Of a DNA stretch of 42,114 bases, positions 1-36,505 are shown piece by piece. The stretch is from a virus (Duplodnaviria > Heunggongvirae > Uroviricota > Caudoviricetes). The stretch lies in the IMG/VR virus record IMGVR_UViG_2585427728_000007; one strand, written 5' to 3'. The position numbers and the translations under genes are program-made. The first letter of the stretch is position 1. Each line of letters opens with the position of its first letter. Below the pieces are notes generated by a model. The model was not told where the DNA came from. It saw nothing but the letters and a program-made list of their open reading frames with translations, and made no database searches.

Positions 1-1158
1 ATGCTCACCGTTAAGCAGATTGAAGCAGCAAAGCCGAAAGAAAAACCATACCGCCTTCTCGATGGTAATGGCCTGTACCTTTATGTCCCTGTATCCGGGA
101 AAAAGGTATGGCAGCTTCGCTACAAGATTGACGGTAAGGAGAAAATCCTGACCGTAGGAAAATATCCGCTTATGACTTTGCAGGAAGCAAGGGATAAAGC
201 ATGGACCGCGAGGAAAGACATCTCGGTTGGCATCGATCCGGTAAAGGCGAAAAAGGCTTCGTCTAACAACAATTCATTTAGTGCGATTTACAAGGAATGG
301 TACGAGCACAAGAAGCAAGTCTGGTCAGTAGGCTATGCAACTGAACTTGCCAAAATGTTTGATGACGACATTTTACCCATCATCGGCGGCCTTGAGATTC
401 AGGATATTGAGCCGATGCAACTGCTGGAAGTAATCCGCAGATTTGAAGATCGCGGTGCAATGGAGCGAGCCAACAAAGCCCGCAGAAGATGCGGCGAGGT
501 TTTCCGTTACGCTATTGTCACCGGCAGGGCTAAATATAACCCAGCACCTGACCTTGCTGACGCCATGAAGGGATACCGCAAGAAGAACTTCCCGTTTCTT
601 CCTGCAGACCAGATCCCGGCATTTAACAAAGCACTGGCAACATTTTCAGGAAGTATCGTATCGCTCATTGCGACCAAAGTTTTACGCTACACAGCCCTCA
701 GAACAAAAGAGCTTCGTTCCATGCTATGGAAGAACGTCGATTTTGAAAACAGGATTATCACCATCGACGCCAATGTGATGAAGGGACGCAAGATTCATGT
801 GGTTCCGATGTCGGACCAGGTGGTTGAACTTCTCACTACGCTAAGCTCCATCACTAAACCAGTATCAGAGTTTGTTTTTGCCGGACGCAACGATAAGAAA
901 AAGCCAATCTGCGAGAACGCGGTGCTACTTGTGATCAAACAAATCGGCTATGAAGGTCTGGAAAGCGGTCACGGATTCAGGCATGAATTCAGCACGATTA
1001 TGAACGAGCACGAATGGCCTGCCGACGCCATTGAAGTGCAACTGGCACATGCCAACGGCGGTTCTGTGCGTGGAATTTACAACCATGCTCAGTATCTCGA
1101 TAAGCGCAGAGAAATGATGCAGTGGTGGGCGGATTGGCTTGATGGAAAGGTGGAGTAA
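1..1158 (+). CDS. int: Tyrosine recombinase / phage integrase (P4-type N-terminus)
   Basis: 385 aa ORF; N-terminus MLTVKQIEAAKPKEKPYRLLDGNGLYL typical of P4-like integrases; C-terminal catalytic region with GHGFRHEF and terminal Tyr motif (VRGIYNHAQY). ATG at nt 1. Confidence 0.9.
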   Translation: MLTVKQIEAAKPKEKPYRLLDGNGLYLYVPVSGKKVWQLRYKIDGKEKILTVGKYPLMTLQEARDKAWTARKDISVGIDPVKAKKASSNNNSFSAIYKEWYEHKKQVWSVGYATELAKMFDDDILPIIGGLEIQDIEPMQLLEVIRRFEDRGAMERANKARRRCGEVFRYAIVTGRAKYNPAPDLADAMKGYRKKNFPFLPADQIPAFNKALATFSGSIVSLIATKVLRYTALRTKELRSMLWKNVDFENRIITIDANVMKGRKIHVVPMSDQVVELLTTLSSITKPVSEFVFAGRNDKKKPICENAVLLVIKQIGYEGLESGHGFRHEFSTIMNEHEWPADAIEVQLAHANGGSVRGIYNHAQYLDKRREMMQWWADWLDGKVE

Positions 1159-2160: not shown

Positions 2161-2877
2161 TCAGTACCCTATTGCAAGATAACGACCGTAACACAAATCA
2201 CTGTCACTACTGCGCGTCACTGCAGCACCCACTGAGTCAGCACGTAAGCTCATCGCCGTCGCAGTGATAGTGGTTCGGCTTGTTGGGGCAATTGCATATA
2301 CTGTCGGTCGTGCGGTTTGTATCACATTATCATGTGTTGCATATGCCTGCATAACCATAGTAGGAAAAGCAATCGGCAGATTAATATCCACAGTGCCGCC
2401 TGATCTCAGAGATGTCATTACTCCCCATTGCATAATAAGCGTCTTACGCGTACCGCCAATCATCATCGGAAATATGGCATATCCGGTTTCGCCCATACTA
2501 CCTGTCGCAACACCTGTAGCACTGATATCTCCTAAACCAAGGTTTTCGAGAGCCGTTTTCACCGTGCCATCCGATTTGATATCGCCAAACGGATTCTTGC
2601 GGCTCAGGTATTCAACAGCAAACCCCGATCCCAGCAATTCAACAAAACCGGGCAGATCACCATTATCAAGCACATCCCGTTGCGTTTTGTCACTTACAAA
2701 CTGGGCCAGAGCTGCAGCAATAAAGCTGGCCTGCCGAATAACCTTATTGACTTGCGCACTGGATGCTTTCCCTGCTGTAAATCCGGATAAAAGCGCAGGC
2801 AACGCTTCCCATTCCTCCTGCGACATAACATTGGCATTCCGATCAGTTGCAAACGCTTTAAAGTCATTTTTCGCCAT
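2161..2877 (-). CDS. Tail fiber protein
   Basis: Start taken at ATG 2877 (MAKNDFKAFATDRNANVMSQEEWEALPALLSGF...), which overlaps the stop of the upstream baseplate gene as TGATG; conserved tail-fiber N-terminal region followed by a variable C-terminal part; followed by a Tfa gene. Confidence 0.7.
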   Translation of the reverse strand: MAKNDFKAFATDRNANVMSQEEWEALPALLSGFTAGKASSAQVNKVIRQASFIAAALAQFVSDKTQRDVLDNGDLPGFVELLGSGFAVEYLSRKNPFGDIKSDGTVKTALENLGLGDISATGVATGSMGETGYAIFPMMIGGTRKTLIMQWGVMTSLRSGGTVDINLPIAFPTMVMQAYATHDNVIQTARPTVYAIAPTSRTTITATAMSLRADSVGAAVTRSSDSDLCYGRYLAIGY

Positions 2878-3557
2878 CAGAGTAATACTCCCCATGCCCC
2901 TACATCAAAACCACTGATGAATTCGTTATCCATATCAAAACCAAAAAATTTTGAACCTTCCGATGGAGTTTCCACCGAAGGTGTTTCAACGCTGCCAGCC
3001 CATACACCAGCAGCTTTAACGGTGAGATAACCCTGTTTGATAGCGGCTATCAGTTCGAGTGACACATCAGAAATATCAGTCTCAGGGAATACCCAGACCG
3101 ATATCGTCATGTCCTGGTTATCGACGATCTGCATCTTCAGTCCAGAGCCTGCGGTAGCAGCGTCAAGGATGGGAGGCAGAGAGTCGTTCCGACCATCCCA
3201 GTTGTTGATAGCGATTTTCGCTTTCAGAATGATGCGGTACGTCTCATCACTCAGCGTCGTATAGCCAGAATCAGGATCATATGGCCCTTGCCAGATGCCC
3301 TGGTCATATCCGAGCCCGTCAGTGTCCCAGCTGAAATAAACGCCGCTAATTGGCTGGCTGACTATACGACTACGCCCAATCCACAGGCCGAGGATATCGA
3401 GTTGCACGCCAACCGCCGTATCGATATCGAAGGCTGTTACAAGCCCTGACATAGTGCTGGACACATCAATCAGCGGGCGGGTGCTCAGATCTATATGGTC
3501 AAAAAAGAGTGGCTTGGTAGCATGGTAGTTAGTGATCAGTTCGGTGTATTTGCTCAT
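2877..3557 (-). CDS. Baseplate protein (Mu gp48 / P2 gpI-like position)
   Basis: Start taken at internal ATG 3557 (MSKYTELITNYH...), which forms an ATGA overlap with the stop of the J-like gene; position between baseplate J-like gene and tail fiber. Confidence 0.55.
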   Translation of the reverse strand: MSKYTELITNYHATKPLFFDHIDLSTRPLIDVSSTMSGLVTAFDIDTAVGVQLDILGLWIGRSRIVSQPISGVYFSWDTDGLGYDQGIWQGPYDPDSGYTTLSDETYRIILKAKIAINNWDGRNDSLPPILDAATAGSGLKMQIVDNQDMTISVWVFPETDISDVSLELIAAIKQGYLTVKAAGVWAGSVETPSVETPSEGSKFFGFDMDNEFISGFDVGAWGVLL

Positions 3558-4753
3558 GAGGTCACCGTGATAGTGACGTGACTCGCAACGCATGACGCAG
3601 ATTCGTCATAAGCAATATCGATATTTCCGCTTGCGACTGAGTCAGAGGATTTGCCGATGAGCAGCTCCTGAATGTCGTAATAGCGAGCACTGCCTCCGCT
3701 TACCACGCCAAGGTTTGCCGGGGAATAAATACGACTCAGCAGAACGTCATCGCCAATTGCCAGGCCATTTATATAATCGGCAACAGCCTGTTTAATCTGC
3801 TCGCCGATTTGAGAGGTATAGCCGGTAAAAACTTTCAGGGTAATGGCTACGAAAATTGGCACATCGGTAGAGCGCGAAAAACTGATGACGTGTGGATTAC
3901 CGTAAGTATCCGGCACCGTGACAGAAGTTTTACCGTAAGTTGCGGTTCCCTGCCCTTTACTCCCCCGGATTGTTTGGGCTATCTCGGTAACATCCCCTCC
4001 ATCGACGATGGCGGAAATAGAGTGTGGCGGCAGCCCGTTGCTGTCGGTTGCCCCAGTGTCGTTCTCATATAGTTTGTGACGTGTCACGCCAGCAACATTA
4101 GCGATAGCACCGTCGACACCTTCAAACGGTGTGATCGATGGTAGCGCGACGCTTTGCCCCTGCCGAATGCGCAGCTCTGCGTCGGTTTCGGCTGGTGAAC
4201 CGACAGTAGCCGCAACTGGATTGGTTACCGACACCCAACCTCGGGTCGGGGTGTTGATAGTGGTAATAGTCCCGGCCAGCGCCGCAACCGAACCGCTATT
4301 CGCACATGTGGCCGTCACCAGCACAGTACCATCAACGCCGATCGCCACACTCGCTGGAAAATTCCAGATAATGCCGTTTTTATCCCGTGCGGAGCCATTC
4401 GTGATAGTCGTGCCTGCCGTACCGGTTAACAGAAGGTCAGCAGTAGAGTTTGTCGCTACTTTTCGCGTGATCCCGTTAATTTTCACATTGTTGCTAAGCG
4501 CTGCGGCCTGCGCTGTCGTCGGTGAAAAAGAGTTGTAGATCTCGATAGCGGTATTGTTAGCGTCATGCACCGCAAGAGCCACCAGCGCGACCATTTGCCC
4601 ATCTTTGCTGTCTGGTTCGAGGTAGGCATCACTACCGTAAATCTGCCTGAAATAGCTGGTCAGTGTATCAAGGATTGTCTGGTAATCAGGCGCACTAATC
4701 CCCTGGGCGGTTACCGTTGCCGATAGCCCCAGCGTGTCGAGGTTCAAAGCCAT
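3554..4753 (-). CDS. Baseplate J-like protein (Mu gp47 / P2 gpJ family)
   Basis: 399 aa; size, composition and position (after W-like, before I-like and fiber) typical of baseplate J family proteins of contractile-tail phages. Confidence 0.7.
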   Translation of the reverse strand: MALNLDTLGLSATVTAQGISAPDYQTILDTLTSYFRQIYGSDAYLEPDSKDGQMVALVALAVHDANNTAIEIYNSFSPTTAQAAALSNNVKINGITRKVATNSTADLLLTGTAGTTITNGSARDKNGIIWNFPASVAIGVDGTVLVTATCANSGSVAALAGTITTINTPTRGWVSVTNPVAATVGSPAETDAELRIRQGQSVALPSITPFEGVDGAIANVAGVTRHKLYENDTGATDSNGLPPHSISAIVDGGDVTEIAQTIRGSKGQGTATYGKTSVTVPDTYGNPHVISFSRSTDVPIFVAITLKVFTGYTSQIGEQIKQAVADYINGLAIGDDVLLSRIYSPANLGVVSGGSARYYDIQELLIGKSSDSVASGNIDIAYDESASCVASHVTITVTS

Positions 4754-5107
4754 TTATGCCTCGCTTGTTACAGTCGTCTGGCCGTAGATTGTGTCAATGG
4801 AGGAAGTGAAGGTGACGCGACGGCTGGTGCCGTCATAATTGGTATCGAAGGAAAGAATCGACAGAACGCCCGGTGTATCCTGTATGCGTTCGCGTATAGC
4901 CAGGATGTAGACATCTGATCGCTGCTTCCCAAGCACTGACTGAACATACGGCGTGCCTTCCGTCAGATCGAGAAACCACTGACCGCGCCACAGCTCGAAA
5001 CGGGTTTTTACGGCCTGGGCGACACATTCCGGACTGTCGATAAGGAAAGTATCGTCACCCTGGCCGAAAGTGTAATCGCCTTCAGTATCTTCGCGACGGT
5101 ATCGCAT
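4754..5107 (-). CDS. Baseplate wedge protein (gp46 / W-like)
   Basis: 117 aa ORF directly upstream of the J-like gene; size and position as for P2 gpW / Mu gp46 family. Confidence 0.55.
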   Translation of the reverse strand: MRYRREDTEGDYTFGQGDDTFLIDSPECVAQAVKTRFELWRGQWFLDLTEGTPYVQSVLGKQRSDVYILAIRERIQDTPGVLSILSFDTNYDGTSRRVTFTSSIDTIYGQTTVTSEA

Positions 5108-5110
5108 AGA

Positions 5111-5749
5111 TTAACCTCCCAGCGGCTTAGTATTGCTTCCGCCGCTCTCAACGCCGCCATGGGTATGCTTATCCACGATAGAACCGTCCACCAGCTGCAA
5201 GTGACCGTCAGGCAGGATTTTGAGCCCGTTAAGGTTAAATCCGCCCGGTGCAGTGCCATTTATTGCCCCGCTGGATGGGTTAAGGCTTAACTTTGTGCCG
5301 CCGTCATCGCTGCGCAGCTCTACCGAACTGGTACTGATACCGCTGATTTTCCGTGCTTGCGACTGCGGGCCAACGATGGCGAACGCATCAGATAAGTCAT
5401 GCTGTCGAGGGTCGACTGTCTCCTGAACGCCGCCGCTCTGCCACCAGAAATCGATGCAACGGTCGGCAAAGATAAGCAGGCATTCGTCGCCTTCTTTTAC
5501 CGGAAAGGTCAGCGTGCAACCACCGCCGCGAGGAAAGATAACCGGCACATCCACCAGCGGTTTTAATTCGGTGGAGCCGTCGCCAACAATACCGCGAAGC
5601 GCCACCTCTGCTGTGCAGGTAACAGTATCAGGATCGAACGACTGAATGATGCCAGGCATCGCTACGCGCATCTGGGTAGACACCGAATCGGCAATGGCCT
5701 GCGCGGTCTGCTGCTCGCCGCCGATCTGTGATTGAGTTGGAATTGGCAT
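5111..5749 (-). CDS. Baseplate central spike / assembly protein (Mu gp45 / P2 gpV-like)
   Basis: Start taken at ATG 5749 (MPIPTQSQ...) preceded by GGAG; the 16-codon N-terminal extension in the ORF track would have to encode a terminator hairpin plus T-tract. Gly-rich C-terminus typical of spike proteins. Confidence 0.55.
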   Translation of the reverse strand: MPIPTQSQIGGEQQTAQAIADSVSTQMRVAMPGIIQSFDPDTVTCTAEVALRGIVGDGSTELKPLVDVPVIFPRGGGCTLTFPVKEGDECLLIFADRCIDFWWQSGGVQETVDPRQHDLSDAFAIVGPQSQARKISGISTSSVELRSDDGGTKLSLNPSSGAINGTAPGGFNLNGLKILPDGHLQLVDGSIVDKHTHGGVESGGSNTKPLGG

Positions 5750-5758
5750 AAAAACTCC

Positions 5759-5785
5759 ATAAAAAAACCCGCTCGGCGGCGGGTT
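5759..5785 (-). terminator. Rho-independent terminator (minus strand)
   Basis: Minus-strand reading AACCCGC-CGCCGA-GCGGGTT followed by TTTTTTTAT; 7 bp GC-rich stem. Lies at the lower-coordinate edge of the moron, just before the spike gene start. Confidence 0.6.
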
Positions 5786-5964
5786 ACTGTTCAAATGTCA
5801 GGGTTTGAGGGCTGATTTGTCCGTGCTATTTATCTTCTTTGCAGCCCTGAATGTAGGTCTTGCTTAAAACCACGGTAACGTCGTGGTTCGTAGCGAGATA
5901 CAGGCTGCCAAGAAAAAGCCGCAAGGCAATTTTTAGCTTCTCACGATAGGGGCCGGATACCTTT

Positions 5965-6315
5965 ATGCCAAAATCAGAAACAACCATAAAATTTACTCCA
6001 GCAATAGGCAAAGAATTGCTCTCCATAATCCAGGATAACATACCTGAAAGCGACTATAAAATACGCAGACGAATCAGAACTGCTGACTCAATTAATGCGG
6101 TTGGCACGCTCGTCGACATAACTATCATCGTAGCCACGTCGTCACCAGCTTGTATAGCCATTGCATCTATCGCAAGAAAATGGATACAGACCAGATCATC
6201 CAAAAAAATAACAATGACCACAGAGAAAGGTAAAATCGAAGTAGAAAACCTGACGTCAAAAGAACTGATTGAAGTAATGGAGCAGTGCAAGAACATCAGC
6301 TTCAAAGAGGAATAA
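5965..6315 (+). CDS. Hypothetical small membrane protein (moron gene, antisense to the tail operon)
   Basis: 116 aa ORF on the opposite strand to all flanking structural genes, in an AT-rich block; central hydrophobic segment AVGTLVDITIIVATSSPACIAIASIA; followed by a strong terminator. No recognisable family. Confidence 0.5.
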   Translation: MPKSETTIKFTPAIGKELLSIIQDNIPESDYKIRRRIRTADSINAVGTLVDITIIVATSSPACIAIASIARKWIQTRSSKKITMTTEKGKIEVENLTSKELIEVMEQCKNISFKEE

Positions 6316-6320
6316 CTTGG

Positions 6321-6349
6321 CGCGCCGGTCAACCCGGCGCTTTTTCTTT
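6321..6349. terminator. Rho-independent terminator between convergent moron genes
   Basis: CGCGCCGG-TCAAC-CCGGCGC followed by TTTTTCTTT on the plus strand; sits in the 38 bp gap between the plus-strand ORF (stop 6315) and the minus-strand ORF (stop 6354). Confidence 0.65.
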
Positions 6350-6353
6350 ATAC

Positions 6354-6704
6354 CTACTTCACCTTCACGCAGTCGTATGTTGCATACTGACGTGGTGCAT
6401 CCATGCTGGCTTGCAACCACTGTGCGTTGAGAATGGCTTTGCCGTTGCGCTTGATGTACTCAAGCCCAACCCAGCGGCCTGGTTGATTAGTTGCAACCGT
6501 CCATTCCATCTTGAGATTTTGATAATCTTCCTTGGCTTTCAGAAAGGTCATTTTCTGGTTTTCTGGCTTTACACCATTAATATGCATAAAACCGTCATTA
6601 CCTGCGGTGAGGCGATATGGCCCGCATTGGGTATCAGCCGTTGCAGTTGAAACTCCGACCAACGAAAGAACGGCTCCGCAGATAACATTCCTAATTTTTG
6701 TCAT
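6354..6704 (-). CDS. Hypothetical secreted (periplasmic) protein with Sec signal peptide
   Basis: 116 aa; N-terminus MTKIRNVICGAVLSLVGVSTATA/DTQ has the basic n-region, hydrophobic core and A-x-A cleavage site of an SPase I signal peptide; mature part has two Cys; ATG lies 1 nt after the stop of the upstream hub gene and follows a GGTG Shine-Dalgarno. Confidence 0.6.
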   Translation of the reverse strand: MTKIRNVICGAVLSLVGVSTATADTQCGPYRLTAGNDGFMHINGVKPENQKMTFLKAKEDYQNLKMEWTVATNQPGRWVGLEYIKRNGKAILNAQWLQASMDAPRQYATYDCVKVK

Positions 6705-6705
6705 A

Positions 6706-7770
6706 TCACACCTGTACTTTTAGGAGCGTCGACTGACTATATAATTCACGACTGCCACGCGCGAAACACATCAAATCCATGTACCACGCCTGACCTCTGG
6801 TGTCGCCAGTATAGTCGATAGCTTTGACGATATAAACGCCATCCGTCGCAATGCTGGCAGCCTGTGACGTCGTGCCGGTCAGCACACGGTTGCCGTTCTC
6901 TTCTGTTTCGGTGATACGCCCGGGCGACTGTGCGATTTCGCTATTGCCGAGCGCGGCGCGGTACACCGAAGCCTGATCGAGCTGGATAAGACCATTAATA
7001 CGGATGTTTGGGTTTATCAGGCACCGCACGTTTACTCCGCCGCCCATCGTTTGTTGCGGCATACCGATCAGGCCAGTATCGGCATTCAACACAATGGCTT
7101 CGTGAATATATTTATCCTCCGGCACCATCTGGACCTGACCATCCACCAGCTGCCATGTCGCTTTGCACTGCGCAGCAATATTATCCATCACGTTACGGGT
7201 GGATGAATAAATCGCACGGCCACGAGGAAACACGGTATCAGGAAAGTCACCGGTAATGCCCTGCGTCACGCCGAACGCGTTGAAATCCTGCATAGTCGCC
7301 CGGTGCAGGTCCGCAACGGTATAACCAGCGGCAAGCGTGGTGATGGTAGTCGCGTAGAGGAACGCTTCGTGGTTACTGATGGCCTGAATCAGCACCCAGG
7401 AATCGGTGATGTTGTCCTTCCCGGTGACGGTGAAGCGAATATCACCGTCAAATATCAGGCCGTAGTTCTGACCGTTCACCTGCCCTACCTGGTCTGGTGA
7501 AATCTCCCGGGCGACACCAACCTGGCTCGCATCAACATCCGGCGCAATACCGTCATACCCGGCAATGATGCGAATTTTTGCAAACTCCTGCCCCAGTATC
7601 TTGTTCGTGGTATCGGTCGAAAGGTTGTAAATTTTCACGTTCGCCACTCGCGGCCAGCGTGTATCTGCCCACTCGATCTGGAACGTGACCTTAAAGTTAG
7701 ACAGGGAAACGCCCTGCCCGTTCTGGTCCAACAGTTGCAGCTCAAAATGGCGCATCCAGTTAAGAGACAT
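6706..7770 (-). CDS. Baseplate hub protein (Mu gp44 / P2 gpD-like position)
   Basis: 354 aa ORF downstream of tape measure and two small tail genes; size and order as for Mu gp44 / P2 gpD. Confidence 0.55.
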   Translation of the reverse strand: MSLNWMRHFELQLLDQNGQGVSLSNFKVTFQIEWADTRWPRVANVKIYNLSTDTTNKILGQEFAKIRIIAGYDGIAPDVDASQVGVAREISPDQVGQVNGQNYGLIFDGDIRFTVTGKDNITDSWVLIQAISNHEAFLYATTITTLAAGYTVADLHRATMQDFNAFGVTQGITGDFPDTVFPRGRAIYSSTRNVMDNIAAQCKATWQLVDGQVQMVPEDKYIHEAIVLNADTGLIGMPQQTMGGGVNVRCLINPNIRINGLIQLDQASVYRAALGNSEIAQSPGRITETEENGNRVLTGTTSQAASIATDGVYIVKAIDYTGDTRGQAWYMDLMCFARGSRELYSQSTLLKVQV

Positions 7771-7772
7771 TT

Positions 7773-8078
7773 CTACTCCTGTACGAAAATGAGGTGGCTG
7801 TATGTGCCGAGGTTGGTTTTGGTGGGCTCGTCTGGTGCGCCCTTATCGGTCGCCACCACCAGCGCGCCATCAATGCCAAGCTGTGGATATTGTCGTAAAA
7901 GGTTTACGCCGGTCAGTAGAGGTACGCCAGAGAGAAGCGCGGCACCGCCGCTATCCATCACGTCCATAATCCAGCCAGCCGCATCACGCCAGATGATCCT
8001 GAGTGTATACGTGGTATTGCCCAGCAAAACGCGGAACTGCTGATTGTCAGGAGAAAGCGGTATTTCGTTAAACTGCAT
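7773..8078 (-). CDS. Hypothetical tail protein
   Basis: 101 aa ORF tightly packed between tail genes; no recognisable motif. Confidence 0.45.
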   Translation of the reverse strand: MQFNEIPLSPDNQQFRVLLGNTTYTLRIIWRDAAGWIMDVMDSGGAALLSGVPLLTGVNLLRQYPQLGIDGALVVATDKGAPDEPTKTNLGTYSHLIFVQE

Positions 8079-8079
8079 A

Positions 8080-8682
8080 TCATCCCCCGAATGCTGATGT
8101 AACGCTTCCGCCCAGCTGGCTCAGCAAGGATTCGTTTGGCGGTGTAGTGGATTTCATCCCGGAATTCTGCACCGCCGATGTGCTGACGCCATCCTGCATA
8201 TCTGATTTATCTGCAACGCTAACGCTCTGCGTCTGCGACATGATCACTTCACGCAGGGTAAGCGTGCAGTTCAGCACGTTCTCGCTGGTTTTATCCGTTG
8301 TCACCTCGATGGCTCGCACCAGCATATTGCTGTAAACCCGCTTTCCGGTCACTACATCGAACGGCACCCGAGAGGACTGTAGATCCAGTAGTTGCTGATA
8401 GGTCTCTTTCGGGCTAAGTCCGGCGCTGAGGCCGATTGACAATGTATCAATGAAGTCCAGCAACGAACCGCCACCAGCGAAGCCGCATTCCATTGTGACT
8501 TCGCTGGGGCGCTTATACGCATGATCGGCGATGAAGCCCGAAGCGCTATTCGTTGTTGGCTTCTCCACCGGGTGCTCAGTAATTTCGAGCGCATCAGAAT
8601 GCTTTTCGGAGACGACCACGCTGGGGATCAGCAGGCCAATTCGCCGGGATTGCTGGCGAAAAATCGCTGATAAAATATCCAT
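8080..8682 (-). CDS. Hypothetical tail protein (downstream of tape measure)
   Basis: 200 aa ORF whose start is adjacent to the tape measure stop; position comparable to Mu gp43. Confidence 0.45.
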   Translation of the reverse strand: MDILSAIFRQQSRRIGLLIPSVVVSEKHSDALEITEHPVEKPTTNSASGFIADHAYKRPSEVTMECGFAGGGSLLDFIDTLSIGLSAGLSPKETYQQLLDLQSSRVPFDVVTGKRVYSNMLVRAIEVTTDKTSENVLNCTLTLREVIMSQTQSVSVADKSDMQDGVSTSAVQNSGMKSTTPPNESLLSQLGGSVTSAFGG

Positions 8683-24671: not shown

Positions 24672-25184
24672 TTAAACGGTATGATATTTCATTCTGGCTG
24701 CCTCAAAAGCCGCAGCGGCAAGTTCGGCAGTGTCATGGTATCCAAGGTTAATACACTTTCCAGACGCATTAATTCTTGCTCTCCATTTCCCGTACTTAGC
24801 ATCCCAAGACACGCCACGGTATCCAGATTTATTATTCTTCTGAATTTTCCTGTTTTGCATATTTTCGGAATGAGTGACAAGACGAAGATTTGATATCCGG
24901 TTATCTGTTCTTACCCTGTTGATGTGATCAATAAAACCATCGGGCATGGTGCCATAAACAATCAACCATGCCAGTCTGTGAGCAGGGTATGCTTTACCAT
25001 TAATCATAATCATTAAATACCCATCAGAATTTATTGATGAGCATTTCTTGAAAGCAAAACGAGAGTTCCATGTCAAAGTGGTCCTCTCTCTCCCCTGCCT
25101 CCATCTCCAGTGAAAGTCGCCTGATGATGGATTGTAATCAACAACAGAAAGCACCATTTCTGGCGTTAATTTTATTTCTTTCAT
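24672..25184 (-). CDS. HNH homing endonuclease with AP2-type DNA-binding domain
   Basis: 170 aa; HNH motif ...DGFIDHINRVRTDNRISNLRLVTHSENMQN... plus AP2-like ...GYRGVSWDAKYGKWRARI...; AT-rich gene sitting between Q/pR' and the tRNAs. Confidence 0.75.
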   Translation of the reverse strand: MKEIKLTPEMVLSVVDYNPSSGDFHWRWRQGRERTTLTWNSRFAFKKCSSINSDGYLMIMINGKAYPAHRLAWLIVYGTMPDGFIDHINRVRTDNRISNLRLVTHSENMQNRKIQKNNKSGYRGVSWDAKYGKWRARINASGKCINLGYHDTAELAAAAFEAARMKYHTV

Positions 25185-25371: not shown

Positions 25372-25401
25372 ATTATGGCTAAATGGATAATTGCATGTCA
25401 A
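25372..25401 (-). promoter_or_regulatory. Late promoter pR' candidate (-35 TTGACA, 18 bp spacer, -10 CATAAT)
   Basis: Minus-strand TTGACA at 25401..25396 (inside the last codons of Q), CATAAT at 25377..25372; immediately followed by a terminator, as expected for a Q-antiterminated late promoter. Confidence 0.5.
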
Positions 25402-25897
25402 GGCCTTTAACAGCAACATGCTTAACTTTCTCAACACGTTTACGCATTTTGAAAGCATTTTGCATTGGCTGGTACAAAACAAATAACGACGCTTTCAGGA
25501 TGTCGTCAATTTCGTTTCTACAGGTTGCCAGTGAAGGTTTTCTCCATCCCTCGCCACCACGTCCACACATCTTGCGTGGCTTTGCAGTCGCGTGATAGTA
25601 GGATGCAATTGCTCGCTTAGATGAACCATGAGCGTAGTAGCTGAGGAGGATGCCAAAGGCTTTCTTGTCAATGTACATGACGGAATCGACGACCTGAGAA
25701 ATCAACATTCCATCATCATCATTGCACATTGGCCTTGTCATAACTCTTCCCGGCTCTACGCTCTCCATGAACTTAGCTATTACGCTGCTCATGCGCTTTT
25801 CCAGACGACCTGAATAAACCCATGCGCCCCACAGTTCAAGCCAGCCATTCAGCCACTCATGCTGTTCTTTGGTGAGGTTTAGTTCTCTTATGCCCAC
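25379..25897 (-). CDS. Late gene antiterminator Q-like protein
   Basis: 172 aa ORF at the canonical Q position (after the nin genes, before pR'/tR' and lysis genes); Cys/His-containing. Call rests on synteny rather than strong sequence recognition. Confidence 0.55.
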
Positions 25898-32812: not shown

Positions 32813-33253
32813 ATGAGAGAAGAAAAAATAATAACAATCTACACAACGGCGGTAAAACCCGGGCTGGCAATCACTCCTTTTATGACACCAGATCCTATAA
32901 TAGTGTCGGAAGAATACCCTTGTTCCGGCTCATTTTACCTAACTGCAATAATGTACTTCGAGCACGAAAAAAAATACACTACCGAACTTGATGTCGTATT
33001 CAATGGAGAATCGGTTTTACCTGATATCTCTAGCAATCAAGAGCAACTGCAAACATTTATGTTTTCTCCTGTCAATGAAAAATATGTTGTGGTTGGCACA
33101 TATCTTTTCGTTAAAAACATCAAACTTATAGAAACAGGAACATATGACATAATTTATCGCATCTTTGAAGACATTGATGGTAATCTTAGCGAAGTTATTG
33201 ATGAAAAAAAATGCGCTCTTATTTCAACCACCCCGAACAGAGATAAGGAATGA
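32813..33253 (+). CDS. Hypothetical protein, first gene of the cI-adjacent accessory cassette
   Basis: 146 aa; AT-rich coding sequence; ATG preceded by AAGGA; no terminator between the cI stop and this gene; no recognisable domain. Confidence 0.6.
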   Translation: MREEKIITIYTTAVKPGLAITPFMTPDPIIVSEEYPCSGSFYLTAIMYFEHEKKYTTELDVVFNGESVLPDISSNQEQLQTFMFSPVNEKYVVVGTYLFVKNIKLIETGTYDIIYRIFEDIDGNLSEVIDEKKCALISTTPNRDKE

Positions 33254-34922: not shown

Positions 34923-35393
34923 ATGACAAAATCATGGAGCGTACCTTTTCCTGAATCAGAAACTGAACATGATGGAATGCCTGTTTTCTGGAGATTCCAA
35001 GCGACAGTTGAAGAAGATGGAATCAAAATATTCGCACTTCAATATATAGCTTTTCATCAGACAGAGCATTATGCATGGTTGGTTCCTGCGCATTGGATTG
35101 TTAATTTTAAACCAGCACCAAATCAGTGGTTACAGGAATGGAAACAAAGGAGAAATAGATATGCAATTAAGAAAGTAGCAAAAAATGCAGAAAGATCTTT
35201 TGCGTTCCCGACGAAGAAACTTGCCATTGAAAGTTTATTGCGCCGGAAGAAATACCATTTGATGAGAATCAAACAAGATTTGGCTGTTGTATCAACTCTT
35301 GTTGATGGGATGAAGAATATTGATACATCAACACCAGATATTGAATATAACTTTGGACACAACCAAGAAACAGAAAATTGGGTGTTTTATTAG
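34923..35393 (+). CDS. Hypothetical protein (early-left accessory gene)
   Basis: 156 aa ORF in an AT-rich block; translation-initiation region (TGAGGTGAGATATG) nearly identical to that of the preceding small gene; no recognisable domain. Confidence 0.5.
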   Translation: MTKSWSVPFPESETEHDGMPVFWRFQATVEEDGIKIFALQYIAFHQTEHYAWLVPAHWIVNFKPAPNQWLQEWKQRRNRYAIKKVAKNAERSFAFPTKKLAIESLLRRKKYHLMRIKQDLAVVSTLVDGMKNIDTSTPDIEYNFGHNQETENWVFY

Positions 35394-35497
35394 TATGAAT
35401 AAGCACTGTGTATTCATTCCAACGAGTGAATACACGGAGCAATGTCGCTCGTAACTAAACAGGAGCCGACTTGTTCTGATTATTGGAAATCTTCTTT

Positions 35498-35524
35498 GCC
35501 CTCCGATGTGAGGGCGATTTTTTT
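35498..35524 (+). terminator. Rho-independent terminator in the pL operon
   Basis: GCCCTC-CGATGT-GAGGGC followed by GATTTTTTT, ending 13 nt before the ATG of the coiled-coil gene. Confidence 0.55.
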
Positions 35525-35536
35525 GATGGAGGATAT

Positions 35537-36505
35537 ATGAGTGAAGTAACAGATTTAGTTGTTATTGAAAAAGCAAATGCAATGACTGTATTTCAGTCTG
35601 CCGACCAGATTGAAGAAATCCTTCAAAAGGTTGAACGTGAAGTTATGTCCTTTGTGCCTGATATCACAACGGCAAAGGGCAGAAAGGAGATCGCTTCTCT
35701 GGCGTATAAAGTTGCGCAGACGAAAACATATCTCGATGGTCTTGGAAAAGACCTTGTTGCTGAACTGAAGGAAATTCCAAAGCTAATTGATGCCAACCGC
35801 AAGACAGTGCGTGATCGCCTTGATGAGCTGAAATCCAAGGCACGCCAGCCTCTTACTGATTATGAGGAGGAACAGGCACGGATTAAAGCCGAAGAAGAAG
35901 CTAAGGCAGCAGCTGAAGCTCTCGCAAAGCAAATTGAGTCTGACCATGAAATAGCTATTTTGATGGATTGCGAATTTGACCGCCAAAGAGAAGAGGCAAG
36001 ACTCAAAGCGGAGCAGGAAAAGCGAGAGCATGAAGAACGCTTAAAAAGAGAAGCTGAAGAGAAAGCCAGAGCAGAAGCCGAAGCAAAGGCAAAAGCCGAA
36101 ATTGAAGCAGCAGCAAGGCGAGAAGCAGAAGCTAAGGCCGCAGCGGAACGTGCAGAGCGTGAACGTATTGAAGCCGAGCAACGAGCACAGCGCGAAGCAA
36201 AAGAGGCAGCAGAACGAGCTGAAAGAGAAAAGCAGGCGGCAATTGAAGCAGAACGCCGAAAAGCACAGGAGGAGGCTGAACGAATCCGGCGCGAGGCTGA
36301 AGCAAAAGAGCAAGCCAGAATAGCAGAAGAAAAAAGAATCAAGGAAGAAGAAGAGTGTAGAGCAAAGGATAAAGCTCACCGGAAAGAAGTAAATAACAAA
36401 ATACTTGCTGACCTTATCAAGGTTGGCGCATCAGAAGATGTTGCTAAAAATATCATAACAGCCATCGTAAAAGGCGAAGTATTCGCAACAAAAATAACCT
36501 ACTAA
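35537..36505 (+). CDS. Hypothetical charged coiled-coil protein (TolA-like Ala/Glu/Lys/Arg-rich repeat region)
   Basis: Start taken at ATG 35537 (MSEVTDLVVIEK...) with GGAGG; the longer ORF-track start would translate through the terminator; about 200 aa of AEAKAKAEIEAAARREAEAKAAAERAERE-type low-complexity helix. Confidence 0.55.
   Translation: MSEVTDLVVIEKANAMTVFQSADQIEEILQKVEREVMSFVPDITTAKGRKEIASLAYKVAQTKTYLDGLGKDLVAELKEIPKLIDANRKTVRDRLDELKSKARQPLTDYEEEQARIKAEEEAKAAAEALAKQIESDHEIAILMDCEFDRQREEARLKAEQEKREHEERLKREAEEKARAEAEAKAKAEIEAAARREAEAKAAAERAERERIEAEQRAQREAKEAAERAEREKQAAIEAERRKAQEEAERIRREAEAKEQARIAEEKRIKEEEECRAKDKAHRKEVNNKILADLIKVGASEDVAKNIITAIVKGEVFATKITY

Follow-up and report, generated by a model that had tools for sequence, protein, structure and literature searches.

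An EACC1-family gene without a protease partner, paired with an overlapping small gene, in a cargo slot between the baseplate hub and spike genes of an E. coli prophage

The window analysed here is the whole 42,114-nucleotide stretch of IMG/VR record IMGVR_UViG_2585427728_000007. An AT-rich gap of 956 bp separates its baseplate hub gene from its spike gene (Table 1), with a GC content of 0.41–0.47 over positions 5700–6750 as against 0.50–0.58 in both flanks. The hub gene is syntenic with the hub genes of all related loci. The spike gene starts at the ATG at 5749, with GGAG ahead of it, the TTG at 5794 proposed by the ORF finder not being the real start; the N-terminus of the spike, MPIPTQSQIGGEQQ, is kept across loci and is preceded by GGAG or GGGG. 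A first-pass annotation of this DNA had described an AT-rich interruption of about 950 bp with two convergent genes and two hairpin terminators, and all of these were found where it had placed them. It had counted two cargo genes, overlooking a conserved third gene on the minus strand, and the slot holds three: the gene for an exported barrel protein, the EACC1 gene and the 53-residue Orf53.

Table 1. Features of the hub-spike junction, with positions in the window.
Feature	Position	Strand	Remarks
Baseplate spike gene, downstream flank	5111..5749	-	Pfam PF18352 (spike N-terminal domain) 1e-40; Apex motif
Conserved intrinsic terminator, just before the spike ribosome-binding site	5759..5785	-	conservation, compensatory changes
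Orf53, 53 aa	5826..5987	-	ATG 5987, GGAG 8 nt upstream
EACC1-family gene, 116 aa	5965..6315	+	antisense to the late operon, without protease partner
Linker motif R38-T39-A40-D41	6076..6087	+	candidate proteolytic release site
Hydrophobic, small-residue-rich segment, residues 48-72, TLVDITIIVATSSPACIAIASIARK	6106..6180	+	most conserved stretch of the family
EACC1 intrinsic terminator	6322..6350	+	GCGCCGG-TCAAC-CCGGCGC then TTTTTCTTTA
Exported 116-aa barrel protein, slot 1	6354..6704	-	signal peptide, two invariant Cys, 8-stranded beta-barrel
Baseplate hub gene, flanking the slot upstream	6706..7770	-	phrog_196 'baseplate hub' 6e-84; Pfam E217_GP41

The junction was compared with those of related phages. 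In two distant ones among them hub and spike are adjacent: in Salmonella phage yarpen (genus Rosemountvirus) the slot is empty and the hub gene (2459-3418) overlaps the spike gene (3418-4065), and in Acinetobacter phage BUCTT20 the hub gene (2501-3460) is followed directly by the spike gene (3463-4125). At least nine different sets of cargo occupy this place in temperate relatives, the alternatives including a DUF4236 protein, transmembrane and signal-peptide proteins, lipoproteins of 240 and 371 aa and a Cys-rich protein; the cargo is varied and mostly exported or membrane-targeted. In this lambdoid prophage, whose tail is of the myovirus type, the space between hub and spike is a genuine hot spot for cargo (morons). 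Mosaic junctions at ~6355-6370 and ~6737-6760 show that the barrel gene recombines separately from the second part of the slot, and the content of the slot is best explained as two independent units, the barrel gene on the one hand and a module of EACC1 and Orf53 on the other. The earlier moron reading stands as regards the empty slot in two distant relatives, the varied cargos, the AT-richness and the terminator; it does not stand as regards a single insert of ~950 bp, the barrel gene being the lineage-typical first gene of the slot and recombining independently.

The exported protein begins with a basic n-region, a hydrophobic core and an A-x-A motif (MTKIRNVICGAVLSLVGVSTATA↓DTQCG). The signal peptide proposed at the first pass is borne out by these sequence features, read together with 41 aligned homologues. 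Its gene starts 1 nt past the hub stop codon, with its Shine-Dalgarno sequence lying within the hub gene, and is the usual first occupant of the slot, being present in most enterobacterial relatives; it is translationally packed against the hub and is not part of the EACC1 insert unit. The protein matches phrog_3443, so that the earlier verdict that neither cargo protein is recognisable does not apply to it, nor to the plus-strand protein, which matches Pfam EACC1. Searches of the barrel protein against Pfam and NCBIfam gave no match, including to the Cor, Llp and lysozyme-inhibitor families. A Cor/Llp-type lipoprotein was rejected, as the signal peptide ends A-T-A↓D, with no Cys at +1 and no lipobox, and an inhibitor of the MliC/PliC/Ivy/LprI kind was rejected in the absence of any sequence or fold match to those families. 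A fold search against viral models returned nothing significant for either the barrel model or that of EACC1.

The plus-strand gene encodes, as first described, a small protein with a hydrophobic segment, antisense to the late operon. Its score against Pfam PF19953 (23.6 bits) is borderline, being equal to the gathering threshold of 23.6; the same family is matched by all 13 of its aligned relatives, with a best E-value of 3.4e-7, and relatives of the protein carry the NCBI name EACC1. A profile of the lineage was aligned by hhalign with KrEACC1, the experimentally characterised pore-forming effector of Ktedonobacter (K. racemifer), giving a probability of 96.5% and E = 7.4e-10 over 84 columns. 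Its sequence identifies the plus-strand protein as an EACC1 protein, homologous to a known pore-forming defence effector, in place of the Cor- or Llp-like receptor blocker suggested earlier. A PDB sequence search with the EACC1 profile returned de novo designed proteins only, and a word-indexed profile search found nothing beyond the tight clade. PADLOC has no model for the module and gave a lone weak match to SngB (E = 0.0025), which was discounted.

The AlphaFold2 (AF2) model of EACC1, of moderate confidence (pLDDT 69), shows a beta-alpha-beta unit, a linker, a strand-helix, a beta-hairpin and a helix; this order of elements (E-H-E / E-H / E-E-H) fits the description of the family. The most hydrophobic 19-residue window, ITIIVATSSPACIAIASIA, reaches a Kyte-Doolittle maximum of 1.96. 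Within the conserved hydrophobic segment, ATSSPACIAIAS is nearly invariant and forms the predicted EACC1 helix with its small-residue patch; judged by sequence, this segment is the hallmark helix of the family, matching the transmembrane helix described for it. For KrEACC1, an auto-inhibited monomeric state has been reported, with pores forming once it is cleaved, the cut falling at Asp49 within LRTQD↓W in the KrEACC1-KrAvs12 system (Evans et al. 2025, bioRxiv 10.1101/2025.11.14.688446). T39 and D41 of the linker are invariant in 13/13 close relatives of the window protein and the Asp is retained in most distant ones; in automated alignments the Asp of the window linker lies 1-3 columns from Asp49 of KrEACC1.

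EACC1 lies here without the caspase-like protease that is normally encoded alongside. Outside the tail and baseplate genes, 30 proteins of the window (29 non-structural ones and a DUF2213 head-region protein) were scanned and showed no caspase or CHAT domain, the sole peptidase domain among them being the S24 domain of cI. The immediate neighbours of EACC1 in the window are the barrel gene downstream and, upstream, Orf53 and then the spike gene. Likewise, no caspase-like protease is encoded among the EACC1 neighbours at loci L005, L006 and L008-L010. EACC1 is flanked by spike and sec/hub in 34 of 35 loci; a nSTAND1-like ATPase, caspase-less, lies nearby at L037.

Orf53 overlaps the first 23 nt of EACC1 head-to-head on the opposite strand. 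Its length and position are unchanged in loci whose EACC1 is just 61-67% identical, its Shine-Dalgarno sequence and its overlap with EACC1 are conserved, and recognisable versions of 52-68 aa, some starting with TTG, occur in loci with 29-39% identical EACC1. Outside the overlap, substitutions fall at the three codon positions in the ratio 111:45:234, a bias towards the third position which a plus-strand ORF cannot explain because six codons ahead of the EACC1 ATG its frame is closed by a TAG. These features mark Orf53 as a real gene under purifying selection; PGAP annotates it as WP_016243572.1. Two ideas on its nature were rejected: hhalign shows no similarity to the N-terminal inhibitory domain of EACC1, of which Orf53 might have been a mimic, and a pattern-based guess at a ribbon-helix-helix regulator found no Pfam match at E <= 1 and no PDB sequence at E <= 10. 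The role proposed for Orf53 below is drawn from the genomic pattern.

That pattern is one of strict linkage. Orf53 is present in 22/22 close loci and accompanies EACC1 in all 35 loci of the lineage, including the different genomic context of L037; among these 35, EACC1 was never found on its own. Orf53 occurs without intact EACC1 at L012, L067/L068 and L030, EACC1 having been cut short on two independent occasions (at codon 42 and at codon 14) and frameshifted once, and is absent from cargo types other than EACC1 and EACC1 remnants. These few cases of Orf53 alone may mean no more than that recombination ended close to the conserved spike flank. The module is rare (13 of 5,426 complete E. coli genomes) and stays in one phage slot while EACC1 identity falls to ~30%. 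Neither gene found a match in 50,697 deposited phage records, no genomic context for two intermediate EACC1 relatives (P0152 and P0148) turned up in viral or genome collections, and a search of the literature on STY1065/STY2022 yielded nothing relevant. In E. coli genomes 100% identical to the window across the cassette, PGAP omits the EACC1 gene.

Terminators had been claimed between the convergent genes and just before the spike gene, and conservation supports both. The plus-strand site (6322-6340 and T-run) has a predicted energy of -14.9 kcal/mol (z = -2.7); a hairpin recurs at this position in diverged loci with differing stem sequences, and in most diverged loci the EACC1 stop codon has a GC hairpin after it. 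On the minus strand the hairpin of the window is followed by GCCAAGUU, without a U-run, so that transcription in that direction is expected to continue past it. The minus-strand site (5785-5766 and T-run, -11.1 kcal/mol) belongs to a hairpin found upstream of the spike in every cargo type examined, with 56/56 cells paired and compensatory double changes at three of its seven pairs, a count reached by 2 of 500 shuffles. The region contains four terminator-like sites, which is not above shuffled sequence (2.6 +/- 1.9); the terminators are credible because they are conserved, the count of sites by itself meaning little. A sigma-70 consensus scan gave no convincing promoter upstream of EACC1. It gave a 9/12 site on the minus strand inside the hub gene (6836-6808), upstream of the barrel gene, and a 10/12 site inside EACC1 (6101-6128) that is uninterpretable because coding constrains the sequence there. 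Genes for the Q and N antiterminators are encoded by the prophage, which makes the late read-through under Q antitermination envisaged in the first-pass annotation plausible by analogy with lambda.

Starting from what the comparisons above establish (which genes are present and to which families they belong, the lack of a protease gene among the proteins scanned, the strict co-occurrence and arrangement of Orf53 and EACC1, the behaviour of the slot as a hot spot and the conservation of the terminators), we give slightly better than an even chance to the reading that the slot encodes a latent EACC1 pore toxin, expressed in the lysogen and gated by Orf53, beside a periplasmic exclusion factor. 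The lysogen would make EACC1 in the form of a self-inhibited monomer, from which an infection-linked trigger would then remove or displace the N-terminal beta-alpha-beta domain at the R-T-A-D41 linker, and the C-terminal part with the small-residue helix would form a pore in the inner membrane and abort the infection. Orf53 may be the gate or antidote that silences EACC1. Late transcription of the prophage would run antisense through EACC1 and in sense through Orf53, which should at once shut off the toxin and provide the antidote. The EACC1 transcript would end at the plus-strand terminator, and the terminator before the spike gene would halt lysogenic minus-strand transcripts, to be overridden by Q. 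The barrel gene would be read with the late operon, its product being most likely periplasmic and acting, for example, to exclude superinfecting phage. A more specific form, which we put forward tentatively, is that Orf53 and EACC1 make up a self-contained abortive-infection module that does not depend on a protease and in which Orf53 replaces the caspase-sensor gate, or, alternatively, that EACC1 serves as bait for a protease of the invading phage. Either version, if true, would mean that a 'pyroptosis-like' effector has become separated in prophages from the protease dedicated to it.

Among the alternatives, both cargo proteins may be envelope-acting exclusion or receptor-blocking factors (Cor-, Llp- or Sie-like) expressed in the lysogen without killing the cell, which we consider unlikely for the slot as a whole. 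The cargo of the slot is overwhelmingly exported or membrane-targeted, with signal-peptide proteins, lipoproteins and transmembrane proteins, and the tail-module cargo of BUCTT20 includes a gene of the LprI lysozyme-inhibitor family. The barrel protein itself is periplasmic to judge by its sequence, and for this protein the view is still plausible, although a lipobox is lacking and Pfam and NCBIfam yield no match to the Cor, Llp or lysozyme-inhibitor families. The EACC1 family, however, is one of latent pore-forming death effectors and not of receptor blockers, and Orf53 is left unexplained.

Rather less probable is a selfish toxin-antidote (addiction) pair made up of Orf53 and EACC1, which would serve to maintain itself or the prophage and would not be dedicated to defence against phage. 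Linkage of the two small genes is strict, the antidote-like one occurring alone and the toxin-like one never, their overlapping 5' ends would allow mutual antisense control, and the rarity of the module in E. coli would suit such a pair. Against this, the EACC1 family is elsewhere tied to anti-phage sensors, and the persistence of the module in one phage slot over such divergence of EACC1 suggests a benefit to phage or host; defence and addiction roles are, moreover, not mutually exclusive.

It is improbable that EACC1 is a holin-like or lysis-timing pore for the phage's own lytic cycle, or a decoy against EACC1-caspase systems of the host. A small, predicted membrane-active protein within the late gene cluster would suit the former, and the N-terminal domain plus linker might in principle be competitors for a host protease. 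[quoted passage not shown] That the exported protein, and perhaps Orf53 too, are conserved virion or baseplate-assembly components is very improbable, for although the barrel gene is packed against the hub in most enterobacterial relatives and Orf53 lies in sense with the late operon, the signal peptide and conserved Cys pair are periplasmic features, unrelated exported proteins replace the barrel protein in three lineages, yarpen and BUCTT20, whose hub and spike genes abut, do not have it, and Orf53 is confined to EACC1 cargo and its remnants.

Descriptions of EACC1 have hitherto confined it to the role of substrate in an EACC1-caspase pair. Here, a deep lineage of enterobacterial prophages has kept the effector and dropped the protease, a tiny gene across the start of the effector being always present, which implies that the pore has another mode of gating. 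In this tail family the space between hub and spike, insulated by a terminator and rich in exported proteins, is a hot spot and as such a practical site for finding new exclusion and defence genes. A gap in annotation is also exposed, the EACC1 gene being passed over by PGAP in E. coli genomes that match the window in this cassette and present in no deposited phage genome.

[quoted passage not shown] 2020, PMC7159879). They share with the window a homologous small protein of ~115 aa, in which an N-terminal alpha+beta domain and an R-T-x-D linker are followed by the small-residue-rich helix and then by W-[IL]-[QK]-x-[RK], a beta-hairpin and a C-terminal helix. Unlike those systems, the window EACC1 has no adjacent gene for a caspase-like protease or sensor; it lies in the baseplate slot of an Enterobacteriaceae prophage and not in genomes of the actinobacterial or multicellular type, and it is always paired with an opposite-strand gene of 52-68 residues that overlaps its start. 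The words orphan, standalone, solo and prophage are absent from the EACC1 preprint (bioRxiv 10.1101/2025.11.14.688446). Bacterial gasdermin-protease systems, a comparison drawn in the same preprint (Evans et al.), are alike in having a latent pore-former, an inhibitory segment and site-specific proteolytic release; they differ in that the fold and family are unrelated, and in that here the inhibitory part is N-terminal and no protease is nearby. From general knowledge of type I-like toxin-antitoxin pairs, the module resembles them in its two tiny, tightly linked genes, in the complementary 5' regions that include the ribosome-binding site of the partner and in the survival of the antidote-like gene alone, whereas here both partners are protein-coding and under purifying selection.

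Classical morons and exclusion genes within structural modules include lambda bor and lom, HK97 gp15, T5 Llp, phi80 and N15 Cor, and T4 Spackle. No sequence or fold relationship of the slot proteins to these genes was found. The slot is like them in being AT-rich, in lying between essential late genes with its own terminator, in its absence from relatives and in the envelope-targeting of its products. It departs from them in that one of its occupants would be a death effector of the cytoplasm or inner membrane and not a blocker of receptors or injection, and in that recombination recurs at the slot, a hot spot whose terminator is conserved.

The hub-spike gap measures 956 bp with the spike start at ATG 5749, which is preceded by GGAG and gives an N-terminus, MPIPTQ, common to all relatives. 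As the first-pass annotation had described, the gap is AT-rich (GC 0.41-0.47, against 0.50-0.58 on the flanks), and both ORFs and both hairpins reported within it are present. The window as a whole is a complete prophage of lambdoid type, with genes for N, cII, an S24-type cI repressor, DnaB, nin genes, Q, S holin and Rz; its integrase is annotated IntS in a close relative, where it adjoins a tRNA-Arg gene and yfdC. The minus-strand late operon specifies an E217/PhiTE-type contractile tail, with a gene order starting from a tape measure bearing an SLT domain.

Features of the prophage and of the hub-spike slot (window positions)
Feature	Position	Strand	Remarks
Integrase	1-1158		First gene of window
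Baseplate J	3554-4753	-	
Sheath initiator	4754-5107	-	
Spike	5111-5749	-	
Spike-upstream hairpin	5785-5766	-	Followed by T-run
Orf53	5826-5987	-	53 codons; GGAG 8 nt upstream of ATG
EACC1	5965-6315	+	116 aa
Promoter-like match	6101-6128	+	TTGGCA-16-TATCAT, 10/12; inside EACC1
Hairpin 3' of EACC1	6322-6340	+	Followed by T-run
Barrel protein	6354-6704	-	116 aa
Baseplate hub	6706-7770	-	
Plug	7773-8078	-	
Dit-like	8080-8682	-	
HNH endonuclease + AP2-domain protein	24672-25184	-	Between Q and holin genes
Q antiterminator	25379-25897		
Early-region ORF	32813-33253	+	146 aa; around N gene
Early-region ORF	34923-35393	+	156 aa; around N gene
Early-region ORF	35483-36505	+	340 aa; around N gene

The plus-strand protein, which had been called unrecognisable, matches Pfam PF19953 (EACC1) exactly at threshold. 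The same family is matched by all 13 aligned relatives (58-86% identity; best E-value 3.4e-7), several of which carry the NCBI name EACC1. KrEACC1, the characterised K. racemifer member (sequence as given by Evans et al., 2025, bioRxiv 10.1101/2025.11.14.688446), aligned to a profile of the window lineage with 96.5% probability and E = 7e-10 (hhalign). On sequence grounds the gene belongs to the EACC1 family. KrEACC1 is an auto-inhibited monomer that a neighbouring caspase-like protease cleaves at Asp49, the C-terminal fragment then forming large membrane pores (Evans et al., 2025). Within the window protein, T39-x-D41 of the segment IRTAD|S is invariant among the aligned relatives.

The lineage was sampled at 35 loci from E. 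coli, Klebsiella, Citrobacter/Enterobacter-type prophages, Symbiopectobacterium and IMG/VR contigs, over which EACC1 identity falls from 100% to about 30%. Position and orientation, between the spike and the exported-protein or hub gene, are constant in 34. The exception, L037 (IMG/VR UViG_2869851316_000001, 3300-5928), has a 31%-identical EACC1 with a 68-aa head-to-head ORF outside the baseplate region, beside a lambda-type holin and a GH108 fragment. An ATPase gene lies about 600 bp away, convergent with EACC1; its 484-aa, nSTAND1/AAA_16-like product is caspase-less, its size leaving no room for such a domain. Some EACC1 systems are reported with nSTAND1 ATPases in a 2021 Aravind-group paper.

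A third gene, Orf53, starts 22 nt inside EACC1, giving a 23-nt overlap, and its length and position are unchanged even at loci whose EACC1 has diverged to 61-67% identity. Substitutions at codon positions 1:2:3 number 111:45:234 (ten pairs summed, overlap excluded), and no plus-strand frame is open there, since a TAG sits six codons before the EACC1 ATG; substitution pattern and frame closure together mark Orf53 as a protein-coding gene under purifying selection. Versions sharing x-[ST]-[DN]-[LF]-x-I-x-[FV]-x-G-[SP]-[YF]...K-[LI]-x-[IVA]-A...L...N-x-x-V-T are recognisable beside EACC1 genes of 29-39% identity, always head-to-head with a 20-23-nt overlap, and the pattern recurs at L037, in its different genomic context.

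A search seeded with Orf53 recovered the same 16 viral contigs and two extra. In these two and in E. coli M172-1, a lipoprotein cassette overwrites EACC1 and leaves Orf53 intact. The overwriting events are independent, since the break points differ (codon 14 in contig L067, codon 42 in M172-1) and the lipoproteins (240 aa in M172-1, locus L012; 241 aa in L067) are only 43% identical. One more contig has a frameshifted EACC1 beside an intact Orf53; among the 35 loci recovered, no EACC1 without Orf53 was seen. The M172-1 remnant stops just past D41-S42, the domain boundary; at both sites (L012 1164-1300; L067 2917-3023) the cassette also replaced the barrel gene and left the Orf53 ribosome-binding site intact.

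Where the cassette DNA of an E. coli genome is 100% identical to the window, for example in ET846 (L001 2425-2953) and C 236-04A (L007 20925-21453), PGAP/RefSeq annotates Orf53 and leaves EACC1 out, an omission that may be explained by the exact-threshold Pfam score. Variants of 80% and 69% identity do receive the name 'effector-associated constant component EACC1'.

Terminator-like sites in the region are no more numerous than in shuffles, and the judgement on terminators therefore rests on conservation. The spike-upstream hairpin is kept regardless of cargo type; all 56 of 56 cells are paired across eight diverse sequences, with compensatory double changes in three of seven pairs, a covariation reached in 2 of 500 shuffles and in no shifted register. 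In most diverged loci the stop codon of EACC1 precedes a GC hairpin, the stem of which varies in sequence. The best promoter-like match of the region overlies the AVGTLVDITII codons, where a promoter signal and the demands of the coding sequence cannot be told apart; any transcript it gave rise to would cover only the portion of EACC1 downstream of the hydrophobic helix.

The site had been proposed as a cargo (moron) locus, and relatives bear this out, with varied cargo in some and hub and spike abutting elsewhere. The hub-spike region occurs in 55 of 5,426 complete E. coli genomes, only 13 of which have the EACC1 cassette (full length in 12). Among the other occupants are lipoproteins of 240 and 371 aa and proteins of 106 and 128 aa that carry signal peptides; further ones include a multi-pass membrane protein of 185 aa paired with a 70-aa protein, a cytoplasmic protein of 181 aa, a Cys-rich protein of 145 aa containing a transmembrane segment, and a DUF4236 protein encoded on the plus strand. 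Salmonella phage SEN34 has a barrel-family gene, its start annotated too short, and a 138-aa protein; Burkholderia phage BgManors32 has a signal-peptide gene on the opposite strand. Homology among cargo types resumes at ~5769-5791, at the spike-proximal terminator.

The barrel gene belongs to phrog_3443, with 111 homologues in Enterobacterales, and its sequence reads as a signal-peptidase-I type signal peptide and two cysteines invariant among aligned homologues. It starts one base past the hub stop codon, is packed directly after hub in most enterobacterial relatives, and is bounded by mosaic junctions at ~6355-6370 and ~6737-6760. Judged from this arrangement, it recombines independently of the EACC1 module, so that the proposed ~950-bp insert stands as a cargo site and fails as a single unit. 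Unrelated exported proteins or lipoproteins take its place in Klebsiella L005, E. coli M172-1 and AR_0118/0119, and where hub adjoins spike there is no such gene; the barrel protein is therefore no universal tail component. Its simplest reading, as a periplasmic exclusion factor, falls somewhat short of an even chance, and no evidence for a specific target was found. SEN34 gp20 (L047 3570-3912) belongs to the barrel family; its deposited length of 77 aa reflects a start placed at an internal Met, and reading in frame further upstream gives the signal peptide and the conserved Cys (LKALAILIVSFMSFGASASGYTAYCGPY...). In viral contigs L018 and L022 (6682-7295), an extra ~600 bp between barrel gene and hub suggests a third insertion point within the slot.

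Mosaicism and cargo appear elsewhere too. Spike homology to relatives (L001-L017) breaks at ~5107-5300, the C-terminal part of the protein, and the gene is 639 nt long against ~741 nt in many relatives. In Acinetobacter phage BUCTT20 (L050 666-1249), the tape-measure and Dit-like genes flank a second cargo site of this tail family. It contains two opposite-strand genes, of which one is listed as a signal-peptide-bearing lysozyme inhibitor LprI family protein. The Q-holin interval, which here holds the HNH/AP2 gene, is a typical cargo position in lambdoid phages. The surroundings of N often hold defence or exclusion genes in lambdoid prophages; the three ORFs there gave no Pfam match at E <= 0.01. 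Taken jointly, terminator conservation, the gene identities, the third gene and the hot-spot behaviour carry high confidence.

Lambda-type Q-modified polymerase ignores intrinsic terminators, and the phage encodes both Q and N, which would be on hand for late transcription that must pass both hairpins. Since the U-run of the 6322-6340 hairpin lies on the plus strand only, minus-strand transcripts from the hub and barrel genes would be expected to read through it, antisense through EACC1 and sense through Orf53, and to end at 5766-5785 unless antiterminated. This geometry predicts that late transcription would silence EACC1 and supply Orf53, and that in the lysogen EACC1 would be made separately from its own putative promoter. 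Our best reading is that EACC1 may be a latent pore toxin gated by Orf53 and triggered when a superinfecting phage arrives, either through an unlinked protease of the host or the invader or through loss of Orf53. This reading draws on the mechanism published for EACC1, on conservation of the R-T-x-D linker and on an antidote found alone where the toxin never is. An abortive-infection role for EACC1 against phages is evenly balanced; that Orf53 is the antidote or gate is more tentative, and rather doubtful.

Kaur et al. (2020, PMC7159879) describe the EACC1 family as the small and constant component of its systems; it has a transmembrane helix with small residues, and its gene lies 5' of one for a highly variable protein fused to a caspase. 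In the aligned relatives and the AF2 model, the window protein has the layout of the described family, and its IRTAD|S linker is close to LRTQD49|W of KrEACC1, the two Asp residues lying 1-3 columns apart in automated alignments. In the 30 window proteins scanned outside the tail and baseplate genes, no caspase-like domain was found, the sole peptidase domain being the S24 domain of cI. An orphan EACC1 with a small partner is not mentioned in the passages of the 2020 and 2021 Aravind-group papers that name EACC1; the words prophage, orphan, standalone and solo are absent from the text of Evans et al. (2025), and neither EACC1 nor Orf53 was found in 50,697 deposited phage genome records. The gene is thus EACC1 by sequence, yet lacks the adjacent caspase-like protease that defines the EACC1-caspase system, and is therefore classed as an orphan, prophage-borne EACC1 variant with a novel small partner.
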